In this document: in pieces, positions 1-6,000 of the stretch
Layout of the letters: each line of letters starts with the position of its first letter
How positions within the stretch are numbered: position 1 is the stretch's first letter
Source of the DNA: an uncultured bacterium
GTDB lineage: Bacteria > Omnitrophota > Omnitrophia > Omnitrophales > JACQLI01
DNA: 64,000 bases
Reading direction: 5' to 3'
NCBI GenBank assembly: GCA_964372875.1
Contig: CAYJTB010000003.1
Location: 9,902 to 73,901 of the forward strand
Position numbers: made by a program

Positions 1-3000
1 TCTTTTACGGGTGCATGATCAGGCATTTTTTAACTTCTTATTCTGTGGACGCTGTTTTCTGAGCCACTGATCGATTTCATTTTTATCAAACCGCCACTGG
101 CCACCCACCTTGGAGGCAGGCATCTTCCCCCGCTGGCAAAGCTTATAGATTTTCTCCTTGGAAACCTGAAGATATTCGGCAATCTGTTCGATTGTGAGCC
201 ATTTGGTAGTCATGAATAAGTGTCCATTTTTTGCCAGATTGTACCAAAGAAGCGGCTATTGAGGGATGATAATTTCGCTATGCTTTTTGCGGCCGTACGG
301 TAACGGCGTGCCCTTTGTCGCCTTTCGACAAAAAGACGAGATTCAAACTAGGTCATACCTCAAAAAATGCTACTTCCAGATTGTAGGATAAATGGAGGGA
401 GCGCAATTTAATTACTGTCCAACCCGATACGATCTATTTCACCTACTTTATCAGGTTCTTTTGTTCTGCTCGGATACCAAAGATCATTGTTTGCATTTGC
501 CCAAACGGGGTTTAAATGGTCAATTACATTATGTATAAAATAGGCTGGCGCTTTGTTTTCTAAATGATAGCCATGCCATCTATTGACGGTACGCCTTGGT
601 TGGCCACTTGGATGAAATTCCCAAAATCGAATAAATCTTGAAGTGCCGAACGACAAGCAATGTATTGTTCTTTTCCAATCACTACCAACAACCGATCTTA
701 ATTTTTCTAGGATTGGCATTATTTCTTCTCCCAACCGATCTTCATATGAAAAAAAACCAAAAAATCGTGGTGCGTTTGAAACATCCGATCTTTGGATAAA
801 TTCTGCATTATTACACAATGTTTCAAGATTTGTTTCTAATTCACTCGATTGAGCGCTTGTCTTTACTTCAATTGCCCCCTTAACGGTGTCTGGTGTAACG
901 ATAAGAAACTCCCCATCTTGAAATAGGATCGGCTTCGTTTTGTCATAAAGCAAAATGTCTATTTGCTTGGATTGTGAACTTGAAGATACAACAAACCCAT
1001 GCCCAACACCAACATGAACAGGTAAATGCCTCCTTAAAACAGTCCGAATAACCGTCTCCTTCCACTCTCCATCTGAGAGAGGATGGGCCTGCTGTATGTA
1101 AAGACGAACTCGATCTTTTAAAGAAAACAATTCTTGGGTTAAAGATTCGAAATATTTTTCAGTATCCATAAATTAACTCTAATTTAAATCGCTAAATTGA
1201 GAGTGCCCCCAACTTGCGAGTCTGTTAACGAATTTTTTTGCCGTCCGAACCGCTGCCTCATCTTTTGATTGAAGAGCAGTTTGAATAATCGATCTAATCT
1301 GATCGGCAGATACTCTTATTCGCCAGCCCTCCTCATCATGTTCGATCATGAGTTCAATCAGTTTTACAGAATCGGTCGGAAATTTTTTGCAGATTTTCAA
1401 GAGGTGTTCAATGATGAAGCTATCAGCTTCTATCTCGTGGCACGCCTCGAGAATAGTAATTATTTTTTTAAACGCCCAATCATCGGGTAGTTTTCCAGAT
1501 GCAAACCACCATCCGAAAGATGTCAACTCACTCATACCAGATGAAGCGTTTTTTTCGCAGTAACCCCAAATTTGCTGAAATCTTTTTTGTATTTTTTCTT
1601 CAATAGGCTGATCAGTATTATATAACATACGACCGAAAAATTCTGTCGCGACTTTCCGCAATGGCAGTGAAGCCTTTTGCCAGAATTTTGAAAATATATT
1701 CTGAGCGTCTTCAATATTGATCTTGCCCCTGGAAGCGAACGTGCAAATATGGCCGGCTAAACTTGTTTCCATATTGTTTGGCTTGTCAGTTTCTTCTTCT
1801 ATACGATCAATAGCTCTTATGTATTCATCTCTCAAAACGATTAGCATTTCATCATAGGCATCAATGTAACAAATGTAGGTTTTCCAAGCTGCTTCCCATA
1901 AATCCTCACGATTTTTTTGAGGAGGAAATACATTGGAAAGGTTTTTTGATACCCAGGAGGTATCCAAAAGGTGTAGCCATGGCAGCCATTGTCCGTATAC
2001 AGCTCGAATGGCTAATGATTTTTCTTCCAAATGCGTTTCTAATGCCTCTTTTACTTCAGGCATTTCCTGAAATCCATTTTCAACTTTATTGAACTGTCTT
2101 TGCTCCTCCCATGTTCTGCGTATCCAGAGAGCGTACCGAATCAAAGCATGCATGCTTTGGCCGCGAACGGTGTTGATCGATAAGGTCAAAGGCTCCATGT
2201 CTTGACTTGCGGCGTCAGGATCCGGGTCTTGAAGCAAGAGACTTAAAATATGCCAAACTTTCTCCCGAAAATCGAAGGCAACAGAAGTTTCTTCCTTAGA
2301 AAAACCGTCTTCTAATAAATTTGCAATTGTTTTTCTTGTCCATCCCCAGTCTGGATCAGCATCCAACCGATCACCTTTAACCGTACGTCCTTCGATTGTT
2401 CTAGGCTGTTTCACGATCCACTGACACAAATCAATAACATTTCCCCAATCAAATTTTTTATGTTCCTTAAGGCCATTTCGGAGTCCCTCAAGAACAGAAC
2501 GAATATAGGTCGGATCAAGCCCTTTAAAGAGTAAGGCATCCGCAGCAAATCGTTGAGGCTCTTTCACAACAGCCGAACTTAATACCCTCCCGAGACCTTC
2601 GTGGGAGTGATCGCAAGGTCCTTCCGGGGCTTTCCAGGTTTTGAGAAATTCAACGACTTGAGAGTTTGTCATTCCCAGTAGTTCTTCTGGTGATTTAGGA
2701 CTGGTTGGACCTGTCCAGCCAGTGCTTACAGAGAAAGTAAAAGGAGCCTCCGGTGCGCCGTGCTTTTTCTCGAGATTTTCATAATACACCTTATGAGAAT
2801 CTGTTAAATGATTCTTGATCCACCCTAACCGATCGCGTTGCCAAGCTTCTTTTCTTTGCTTTTTTTCGTCCTCATTTTTTTCTGAATCTTTTGAAAATTT
2901 GGGGCCTTCATAGATCCAGTTTAAAATCGTTTCTTGCTGACCGGGCGATAAGATACCGAAATAGTCAGTGGCCAATTCCCAGTATTCTTTTTTTCCTCCG

Positions 3001-6000
3001 TAGAAGTCAAATAAATCACGCCTAACAAGATGAGCTTTTACGATATCCGGGACTTTGCTGCCAAACGATTTCAAAACTTGGAGAGTTATCCTCTGAAAAA
3101 TTTGCCAGTTCCTTTTTTCTAAAACTTGTATGACGTTTTCTGCGTTTTCAGGTTGCTGATTTAAAATATCCTCCGCGGCCTTTTTTACAGAAAAAACTAG
3201 GATATTTTTAATTTCGCGATTTCCATATCCTTGCGGTTCGACAGAAATATTGGAATACCAGACGTAAGAATAGTCTTCCGGGGCTTTGGAAGCATTGTTA
3301 TCCGTATGGATATTTATTGCTTGCTCCAGAAGATCGCAGAGAAATTCAACAGCTGTTAAACCCAATAAAGGGATAAGTTTTAAAAAATATTTCTTAACAA
3401 TGTCAAGGTAGGTATGGCTGTCCAGCTTCGCCTTGGGTTCTGTCCGGTTAAATCTATTTTTTCTTTTTGAGCCCGCCATTTTATCAGGTTCGATTTCGAA
3501 TAATCCTTTTGCCACTCTTAGGGCTACATCCCCTTTACCTCCCGCGGCTAAATGCACCATTATCTTTGCCGCTTTTTCAGGAATGAAATGGGAATAAGGA
3601 GTTTTGATCCATTCCAATAATTTCTCAACCAATCCAGCGGTTTGGGATGCTGGCAGGTCACCCGCCGCATCCAAGAAATCTTCACAAATCCGAATGTTTG
3701 TGGTTGGTGGAGTTTTTTGAATTATTTCGAATACTTTATCGGGTGTTGTTTTTGCCATGAACGCCAAATACTCTGACGCTGGCCAAGGAGGGAAATGAAT
3801 TGTGCCCTTTTCATCATCAACTATAGGGGCGGGTGGTGAATCAAAGAAACCTTCATTATCAAGAAGCTCAAGCCAAAGAGAAGATTTGCCTTTTATTTTT
3901 GAAAACAAATATTTAAGCAGTACCCAGTTATTTGGAATTTCCTGCTTTAATTTTTTGATAATTTGTTTGGTCGGTACTTCTTCTGCGATTTGATCTATTA
4001 GCGAATGATAAAGAAGATACTTGCTCTCAAAACGCCTCAGGACTTCATCCAAGACTTTTTGAAAACCCTCCCAAATATTTAAAAATTCACTGTCTACGGG
4101 TCGCGGTTCAAGCAGGTTGTTCCGATGCGCGTATTTGTGCAATGACAGCTTCACCCATAGAGTCTTCAACCCGTCATTCTCTTCCGAATCAAACGTATTT
4201 AAGATTCGCTCGATAATTTGCGCCCTTGTTTCTCCGAGCTTACCTATGAATTCTTCAATTTTTCTATCTAAGTCGTTTACGCTGATAATTCCCCTCGCGG
4301 TTAAAAGAACTTTTAAATCTTCTTCCAGTTTTTCAAATTTTGAAAGGAGGCTTGCCTCTGACGGAGAAACGGGTTCGAGAACGCCGAGGATTGAACTTTC
4401 GATTTCACGAAGGAGATGCCCGACCAGATTAGAAGTGCTTGTAAGTTGCAAACTGGTTTGATTCATAAGCTGAACCGCGTCTTTGTACATATTCGCGGGA
4501 CCGTCTCCAATTCGATTTAGGGATTTATAAATTCTTTCTTGTCTGGGATTTTCGAACCGAAAAATTTGTCGCCTCATGCCGGGTAGGCGACTGGATGGAC
4601 CAGTTGCAATTTTGGGGGATATTTTTTGCTCTAGGAAATTTCGAATCTTTTCTATCTGAAGCCTGTTAGGTCTCACGTGGCCGTTAATCCACCGATTGAT
4701 GGTCTGAAAGGAAACCCCGAGTTTTTTGGCGAGCGCCGTTTGGCTCAATCCATGATCCAGTCGGTATTTTTCGAGTTTTCGTAACAGATCTTCCATGATT
4801 ATCAACTAATATACCATTATACCATATTATAACACAAGTAAAATAAACTGCCCTTTCCCCATGCAATAAAGCACCGAGAAAATCCCTTCAGGGGGAGGTT
4901 ACTTTGTTACCGCATGGTTGGGAATGAATTACTGCAAATTATTTCGCGCGGGTTAATTCTCAAACTGGATTCCTACCGTTTGCCGCCGGCTATCTCGTTA
5001 TCTGCATATTTAGCGGCAGCGTGGGAGGAAAATGGGTATTTCGCGGCAGGTTATCTACGGAATAGTTGGTCTAAAAACCAAAGAGAGGCTATCGCCGGTG
5101 TACCCAGCTACGGCCTTTTTAGGAAGATCGTTTGTTAGCTTCCGGACGAATTCGACATGATTGATCGGACGATTTCGACATGATCAGGCCTTTGCGGCGG
5201 CTTTTTGTGGAGACTGTTTTCCTAAGTCCTTCATTTTGTTGCCGATAAAAATGGCGAGATCGACGCAGCGGTTTGAGTAGCCCCACTCGTTGTCGTACCA
5301 GGCAACCACCTTTACCAGGCGTTTGCCGATGACTCGAGTGAGCTCGGCATCTACGATCGAAGATTTGGGATTGCCTTTAAAATCCATTGAGACAAGCGGT
5401 TCGTCACAATACTGCAGGTAAGGACTCATTTTTCCTTGAGAGGCGCGCTTCATCGCAGCATTCACTTCTTCGACTGTCGTATCTTTTTCGACTTCGGCAA
5501 CAAGGTCTACGACCGAAACGTCAGGGGTCGGAACGCGCATGGCAAGTCCGTCTAATTTTCCTTGGAGTTCAGGAAGCACCAGACCGATCGCCTTTGCAGC
5601 ACCCGTACTGGTAGGAACAATGTTTTGCGCAGCACCGCGCGCACGACGCATATCGCTGTGGACCAAATCCAATATCCTTTGATCATTGGTGTAAGAGTGA
5701 ACGGTCGTCATCAAACCACGTAAAATTTTGCATTGTTCATGGAGAACTTTGGCAATAGGCGCCAGGCAATTGGTCGTGCAGCTTGCATTGGAAATGATGT
5801 GGTGACGTTCAGAATCATATTTGTCTTCATTGACGCCAAGGACGATGGTGATGTCTTCATTTTTTGCAGGCGCTGAGATAATGACTTTTTTGCAACCGCC
5901 TGCCAAATGGGCCTTGGCCTTTTCCGCATCCGTAAAAATGCCGGTGGATTCAATCACAATATCAACCCCGAGCTGGCCCCACGGAATTTCAGCAGGATTT

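Follow-up and report, generated by a model that had tools for sequence, protein, structure and literature searches.

Predicted defense modules of three known kinds beside gap in an uncultured Omnitrophota bacterium, with a helix-turn-helix-fused relative of the Dsr1 sensor

The contig CAYJTB010000003.1, from an uncultured Omnitrophota bacterium, carries three small to very large genes next to the housekeeping gene gap, and a preliminary description had read them as one integrated accessory module whose members fit no nameable defense family. We examined positions 1 to 5190 of a 64,000-nucleotide stretch of this contig (hereafter, the window), and all coordinates are window positions. The three genes are three juxtaposed modules of known kinds and not one new architecture: a 1205-residue relative of the Dsr1 sensor, a 253-residue DUF6602 nuclease, and a 64-residue helix-turn-helix (HTH) protein that heads an operon with an SNF2-family helicase. 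We consider it probable (about 0.7) that positions 1 to 5183 are the right-hand end of a horizontally acquired defense island in which these modules are independent of one another. The modest novelty lies in the large protein, a predicted HTH-fused member of the Dsr1/Avs7-sensor branch in which SIR2 appears to be replaced by a small helical His/Arg domain.

Open reading frame (ORF) calling places all genes between positions 1 and 6236 on the minus strand, and the three genes lie where the preliminary description had put them, as do both copies of the 11-nucleotide repeat on which it built an integration model. The GC content of positions 1 to 5183 is 0.413, compared with a mean of 0.473 and a minimum of 0.448 for the other 5-kb stretches of the window, and this difference supports a foreign origin. 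The accessory character claimed for the stretch thus holds in both composition and content, as it is compositionally foreign and carries defense-type genes. The lack of a nameable family does not hold, since the large protein matches the PADLOC Dsr1 profile, the nuclease matches DUF6602, Cas-associated PD_DExK, and NucC profiles, and the gene at the left edge matches DrmD. A viral origin was considered and rejected, as neither the large-protein family nor DUF6602 was found in IMG/VR.

The large protein and its family

The large ORF (positions 1179 to 4805) encodes 1208 residues from a TTG codon and 1205 residues from an ATG at 4796. The latter product (1179 to 4796, minus strand) is identical to P0001 and is read here as a putative single-polypeptide sensor-effector. 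Its sole Pfam domain is an XRE-type HTH at residues 11 to 58 of the 1208-residue ORF (positions 4632 to 4775, minus strand; PF01381, E = 1.4e-11), and it contains no Walker A motif, in agreement with its preliminary description as a large non-ATPase with such an HTH. The PADLOC Dsr1 profile matches the large ORF with an E value of 1.2e-68 (229.9 bits), aligning residues 269 to 1183 with profile positions 296 to 1199 of 1227. Profile positions 1 to 295 are unmatched, and searches of Pfam, NCBIfam, and PADLOC gave no match to SIR2. The AlphaFold model of residues 71 to 1208 is an all-helical alpha-solenoid with a predicted local distance difference test score of 81. A Foldseek search with the full model returned generic solenoids, such as CAND1 and karyopherins, and Avs4 had the highest query TM-score, while the full-length profile of the protein matched no PDB sequence. 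Judged by the profile alignment, the C-terminal solenoid of about 900 residues is homologous to the Dsr1 sensor; it belongs to an alpha-solenoid/TPR-like domain of about 935 residues (positions 1182 to 3992, minus strand), which the literature would also connect with the Avs7 sensor. According to a January 2026 preprint (PMC12803255), a bilobed TPR sensor is common to Avs7 and Dsr1, SeAvs7 and EcDsr1 respond to a single trigger, the phage major capsid protein, and the same sensor occurs in non-STAND proteins whose effectors are NADases, nucleases, kinases, or HEPN-like RNases. The main text of that preprint makes no mention of HTH fusions to the Avs7/Dsr1 sensor.

Between the HTH and the solenoid lies a conserved helical N-domain of about 190 residues (approximately residues 75 to 268 of P0001; positions 3993 to 4574, minus strand), which we regard as the putative effector. 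Across 105 homologues, H127, R130, W214, H224, and R225 are invariant, and Q86, D106, E131, E133, S134, and R232 are kept in at least 86%, with E131 and R232 nearly invariant. The window protein has N123 where 91% of the family has His and L137 where 85% has Arg. Both changes are shared by a 72%-identical relative; an 80%-identical relative keeps H123 and shares L137, and a 42%-identical, HTH-bearing relative keeps both family residues. The modeled fold of the N-domain is all-helical and differs from that of SIR2. A Foldseek search of the N-domain against the PDB gave nothing significant (best E value, 1.8), the N-domain profile matched no PDB sequence, and Pfam scans of 27 members were likewise empty, so that no HEPN family appeared in either. 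The Rx4-6H motif is likewise missing from the N-domain, whose invariant pattern is H127-x2-R130 and H224-R225-x6-R232. We therefore call the domain HEPN-like only tentatively. The stronger statement is that it is a conserved His/Arg-rich domain occupying the position of the SIR2 effector of Dsr1.

The family to which the large protein belongs is extensive. A profile search of 1.84 billion representatives (50% identity) recovered 8420 at an E value of at most 1e-3, 4551 of them at an E value of at most 1e-30. Most of the best 150 of these 8420 are approximately 1110 to 1150 residues long and open directly with the domain found here at residues 75 to 268, such that the branch with SIR2 replaced accounts for most of the best 150 representatives. 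About 35 of the same 150 are sensor-only proteins of 950 to 985 residues that begin past the N-domain. Extra N-terminal DNA-binding domains occur in few members and are fused in few lineages: HTH_3 in P0011, P0041, and P0028 and a MarR-like winged helix in P0090. One further member, P0010, has a protein kinase in place of the N-domain.

A scan of species-representative genomes found 39 loci with homologues of the large protein, spanning Omnitrophota, Planctomycetota, Chloroflexota, Acidobacteriota, Actinomycetota, Cyanobacteria, Bacillota, Patescibacteria, and a Bathyarchaeon. Across the homologue loci, the large gene has no conserved neighbor. The two flanking genes on each side, compared at 33 loci, include type I hsdS, GajA/OLD, AriA, MADS proteins, Lit protease, Schlafen-AlbA_2, integrases, and resolvases; type I hsdM and an Eco57I-type methylase are also found in these neighborhoods, and the homologue directly follows hsdM/hsdS in three loci. 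At four loci (L032, L038, L041, and L042), the homologue is split into two to five ORF fragments, indicating gene decay.

The three closest homologues, 80%, 72%, and 42% identical to the window protein, also differ in their surroundings: one lies beside an IS3 transposase, one among relaxase-like and conjugative-transfer-like genes, and one before a serine recombinase. The window and the loci of the two closest relatives (L047, 80% identical, and L003, 72% identical) share only the gene and the 42 nucleotides upstream of it, with homology ending within approximately 10 to 25 nucleotides of the stop codon. In this respect, the large gene acts like a mobile cassette made up of one gene and the compact promoter that it brings along. 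The shared upstream block (positions 4797 to 4838, minus strand) abuts the ATG of the large gene. Its conservation with the sequences preceding P0002 and P0003 (L047 and L003) is about 81%, whereas nothing beyond the block can be aligned and the wider contexts of L047 and L003 are unrelated. It holds boxes resembling -35 and -10 elements together with four G(G/T)TATA(A/T) repeats, making it a candidate promoter/operator for the fused HTH. In L047, approximately 170 nucleotides downstream of the homologue (positions 6170 to 6223 of that locus), there is an apparent 3' part of a tRNA with the anticodon loop CTCATAA, the T-arm GCAGGTTCAAATCCTGC, and the acceptor end CCA, in which ARAGORN finds no complete tRNA. 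This segment resembles an att remnant at the edge of an island in that genome.

The DUF6602 nuclease and its coupling to the large gene

The nuclease gene (positions 408 to 1169, minus strand) begins 9 nucleotides past the stop codon of the large ORF on the same strand. Its 253-residue product scores 70.5 bits against PF20247 (DUF6602; cutoff, 27), and its N-terminal half matches the Cas-associated PD_DExK profile of PADLOC (E = 8.5e-22) and NucC profiles (E = 1.5e-11 and 2.5e-12). Q69, D71, E101, and K103 are invariant in 40 homologues, defining an ID-x29-EVK signature, and the catalytic residues D71, E101, and K103 are intact. The DUF6602 match and the intact catalytic residues substantiate the PD-(D/E)xK-like assignment that had been made by eye. 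The nuclease family comprises 167 proteins of about 250 residues with 40 to 68% identity.

DUF6602 homologues occur in varied contexts: behind a 321-residue protein with no Pfam match and before HTH_17, Vsr, and Dcm genes; behind a 172-residue protein near DndE; after a methyltransferase; and alone. Damona, a single-gene anti-phage cassette from the chromosomal integron of Vibrio cholerae, is a DUF6602 protein (10.1101/2024.07.02.601686). The most economical reading is that the window nuclease would be an independent single-gene nuclease of the Damona type that is co-transcribed with the large gene.

In the preliminary description, the large protein was paired with the nuclease, and one could accordingly suppose a single two-gene system in which the large HTH protein is the sensor and the DUF6602 nuclease a separate, or second, effector. 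The shared strand and the 9-nucleotide gap make co-transcription almost certain. Elsewhere, DUF6602 homologues are frequently preceded by a closely linked gene whose type varies, in one case that of the 321-residue protein mentioned above. In L003, a stretch of about 20 nucleotides following the stop codon of the homologue with 72% identity bears a weak resemblance to the beginning of the DUF6602 gene (11 of 16 nucleotides). However, the DUF6602 profile finds no copy in any of the 45 other loci with a homologue of the large protein, including the 72%-identical homologue and the 42%-identical, HTH-bearing one, and no DUF6602 gene is present in the approximately 220 nucleotides following the stop codon of the 80%-identical homologue. 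The two genes therefore co-occur only in the window sequence, and the supposed pair is not upheld. The large protein also retains a conserved N-domain of its own with invariant His and Arg residues, while DUF6602 genes stand alone in other genomes and the single-gene Damona is active according to its authors. We regard a two-gene system as unlikely.

The DUF6602 gene and an HTH_17 gene were also considered as a conserved pair, as the two are adjacent both here and in locus L129, and this was rejected: identity between the HTH proteins is only 24%, and the two loci have no related DNA. At L129, a 64%-identical DUF6602 homologue has, closely linked on its upstream side, the gene for the 321-residue protein (positions 5004 to 5969 of that locus). 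That protein has no Pfam match and carries RCDFDH, a canonical-looking Rx4H motif, near its C terminus. A module of HTH_17, Vsr, Dcm, HATPase_c_3, and Dcm genes follows the DUF6602 gene at this locus.

A different form of coupling would run through transcription. The HTH-fused branch could combine a capsid-sensing transcription factor with an effector, the HTH in its resting state repressing the block at 4797 to 4838; binding of a phage protein to the solenoid would then activate the N-domain and lift the repression, raising expression of the large gene itself and of the DUF6602 nuclease. If so, the locus would mount a two-tier response, directed first at RNA and then at DNA. We hold this to be quite improbable, and we return below to the nuclease as an independent, co-transcribed module.

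The gap boundary and the small HTH gene

The right border of the low-GC patch is gap itself (positions 5184 to 6236, minus strand), a housekeeping gene for GAPDH (Gp_dh_C, E = 1.2e-68; Gp_dh_N, E = 8.4e-37). The 11-mer CATGATCAGGC is present on the plus strand at positions 14 to 24 and 5179 to 5189 and nowhere else in the window, and each copy overlaps a TGA stop codon preceded by an Ala codon, the right-hand copy overlapping that of gap. The preliminary description had taken the two copies for a duplicated att core. We counted 15 direct 11-mer pairs in positions 1 to 5190, compared with a mean of 9.1 in first-order Markov simulations of this region, 99.8% of which contained at least one such pair. 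An expected value of 0.01 holds for one word fixed beforehand and not for any 11-mer. The similarity between the two copies of CATGATCAGGC ends at 11 nucleotides.

The left-hand copy is placed by Logan contig L001, which is 972 bp long, overlaps the start of the window, and adds a gene whose ATG lies at positions 26 to 24 and which extends leftwards for at least 241 codons. Only the first 26 nucleotides of this gene, which encodes an SNF2-family (DrmD-like) helicase, fall within the window (positions 1 to 26, minus strand); the remainder lies to its left. The small HTH gene (positions 19 to 213, minus strand) ends within it, and the left 11-mer sits inside the 8-nucleotide overlap between the HTH stop and the SNF2 start. 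The left copy is therefore not at the end of an element, because it lies inside a translationally coupled gene junction. With the pair at chance level and the left copy in this position, the 11-mer pair is a chance match and no integration scar.

The 64-residue product of the small gene has an HTH_17 domain of the excisionase-family fold (PF12728, E = 2.8e-20), with 65.9 bits against TIGR01764. An identity as MAD1 of the MADS system was rejected, as the score against the NCBIfam equivalog (71.1 bits) is below the cutoff of 80. The adjoining 241-residue SNF2 fragment matches PF00176 (E = 6.5e-31) and PADLOC DrmD (E = 2.5e-64), and its score of 218 bits against NCBIfam DISARM_DrmD_b covers 200 of 868 profile positions, with a full-length cutoff of 950. 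A tblastn search of annotated plasmids found, on plasmid p7 of Rhizobium sp. NLR16a (NZ_CP072872), a 75-residue HTH protein 43% identical to that of the window (E = 1e-18), whose gene overlaps the start of an SNF2 gene 68% identical to the window's. The p7 operon runs HTH, SNF2, DNA methyltransferase, DUF262, and DEAD/DEAH helicase, and the same search found Salmonella plasmids with HTH, SNF2, (IS256, Abi), methyltransferase, and DEAD/DEAH helicase. Because the HTH/SNF2 pair is conserved on these plasmids, the small HTH gene is an operon leader and not evidence of an excisionase; it had been taken for an AlpA/excisionase landmark, a role that its resemblance to the leader HTHs of these SNF2 operons speaks against. 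As predicted from these comparisons, it is the conserved leader of a restriction-type operon that is either DrmD-like or type III-like with SNF2. The best 120 homologues of the SNF2 fragment are all short (220 to 418 residues) despite 75 to 87% identity, and one of them (L139), on a 971-kb contig, is a 354-residue remnant; the shortness may reflect search ranking or widespread truncation.

These results bear on the model in which an element entered gap at its 3' end, left an 11-bp att core in two copies, carried the small HTH as its AlpA/excisionase, and kept its integrase left of the window. The model draws on the two stop-codon-overlapping copies of the 11-mer, on the low-GC stretch that begins directly after gap, on the excisionase-family fold of HTH_17, and on the gap end itself, where the gene has an unusual tail of about 15 residues and a tandem pair of 23-bp units sits directly against the stop codon. 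However, a pair of 11-mers is expected by chance in 5.2 kb, the match is limited to 11 nucleotides, an element ending at the left copy would cut an operon, and plasmids keep the HTH/SNF2 pair at the front of operons of the restriction type. Nor does the sequence at hand offer the usual landmarks: no integrase was found in window positions 1 to 9250, the left flank being reached for only 972 bp, no tRNA was found in the window, and Rfam gave no match in positions 1 to 6400. Neither a tRNA nor a noncoding RNA was found in the 378 bp that separate the large gene from gap. Among gap relatives in the metagenome collection, the best 80 loci are at most 65% identical, and none is syntenic. We consider this model very unlikely, and the horizontally acquired island of independent modules remains our reading of the locus.

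Several features of the gap region stand on their own. The two tandem units, CGGACGA(A/T)TTCGACATGAT (positions 5143 to 5188, plus strand), were read directly from the sequence and differ by one mismatch; TTCGACATGAT, the 11-mer common to both, starts at 5151 and 5174, and the second unit is overlapped by the right-hand copy of CATGATCAGGC. These units may reflect slippage, a binding site, or an old junction. The C-terminal tail of gap is encoded at positions 5184 to 5231; most of the best 80 metagenome relatives stop matching at about residue 327 to 335, and only L118 among them matches to residue 350. Upstream of gap, positions 6267 to 6294 (minus strand) match the sigma-70 consensus perfectly (TTGACA-16-TATAAT), the sole 12/12 match in positions 1 to 6400.

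Proposed action and comparison with known systems

Homologies, domain limits, gene neighborhoods, and GC content were computed, whereas we infer capsid sensing, RNase chemistry, autoregulation, and anti-phage activity. By analogy with Dsr1 and Avs7, the solenoid of the 1205-residue protein would bind the major capsid protein, a structural protein that phages conserve. Capsid binding would switch on the N-terminal helical domain that stands in the place of SIR2. This domain would probably act as a HEPN-like RNase, with the invariant H127/R130 and H224/R225 as the residues used, and would thereby halt growth or abort the infection. The fused XRE HTH would most likely autoregulate the large gene through the 42-nucleotide block. 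The DUF6602 nuclease would be a separate module, merely co-transcribed with the large gene, and the 64-residue HTH_17 protein would be the leader and likely regulator of an operon of SNF2 (DrmD-like), methyltransferase, and helicase genes running left of the window.

Several points weigh against this account of three independent modules. All three are known here from sequence alone, and the 9-nucleotide spacing leaves room for functional coupling at this locus. The deviations at N123 and L137 mean that the effector could be weakened, and the HEPN-like Streptomyces protein of PMC12803255 may carry a different N-domain. At the left edge, the DrmD_b match is confined to 241 residues, and the closest annotated operons look type III/SNF2-like and not like canonical DISARM. 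Last, the large protein could be no immune protein at all but a scaffold, or a transcription factor, built on an extensive helical repeat, as the HTH is its only Pfam domain and alpha-solenoids such as the karyopherins and CAND1 returned by Foldseek are generic protein-binding scaffolds, but this is most improbable given the specific sequence homology to the Dsr1 sensor, the absence of the HTH from most family members, and the patchy spread, some decayed copies, and defense or mobile neighbors of the family.

The three-module reading removes a false lead, formed by the att repeat and the supposed excisionase, and puts names to three genes that had seemed unclassifiable. For annotation, it indicates that a small HTH_17 gene beside defense genes is not by itself a sign of an excisionase. 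If the sensor reads the capsid as in Dsr1 and Avs7, the branch would offer a compact system in which to see how one sensor drives different effectors and whether a fused HTH links sensing with transcription.

Each module has counterparts among known systems. The operons of HTH, SNF2, methyltransferase, and helicase genes (DISARM class 1, DrmD-like, or type III-like Mod/Res with SNF2) likewise have a small HTH_17 gene overlapping the start of a DrmD-like SNF2 gene; here, the helicase is known from its first 241 residues, and the methyltransferase and other genes, which for DISARM class 1 would be drmMI, drmA, and drmB (DUF1998), would lie outside the window. Damona is likewise a small, single DUF6602 protein that cross-matches the Cas PD_DExK profile and that of the CBASS small endonuclease (NucC), a comparison made by profile signature and not by sequence. 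Damona resides in an integron cassette, whereas the window nuclease lies 9 nucleotides behind another defense gene. NucC, the cyclic triadenylate (cA3)-activated endonuclease of CBASS and type III CRISPR systems, is about 241 to 244 residues long, compared with 253 here, and has ID-x30-EAK in place of ID-x29-EVK. The NucC match covers only residues 4 to 130, approximately, of the 253, and no cyclase or Cas10 gene adjoins the window nuclease.

The N-domain of the large protein differs from HEPN toxins and effectors (SO_3166, RnlA/LsoA, Cas13, and Csx1) in that these have the canonical Rx4-6H motif, which the N-domain lacks along with any sequence-profile match to them. The HEPN proteins named beside it are sacsin HEPN, HI0074, AF0298, RnlA/LsoA, Cas13b, Csx1, and Las1, with weak support. 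The closest parallel to the protein as a whole is with Dsr1/Avs7-sensor proteins (Gao et al. 2020; Garb et al. 2022; PMC12803255), which are likewise single large polypeptides in which an effector at the N terminus precedes a helical-repeat sensor of about 900 residues, encoded by a stand-alone gene in defense islands. Dsr1 has a SIR2 NADase at its N terminus where the window protein has the helical domain of about 190 residues with invariant His and Arg, and the window protein adds an XRE HTH at its extreme N terminus, unlike Dsr1 and Avs7 as presented in the main text of PMC12803255.

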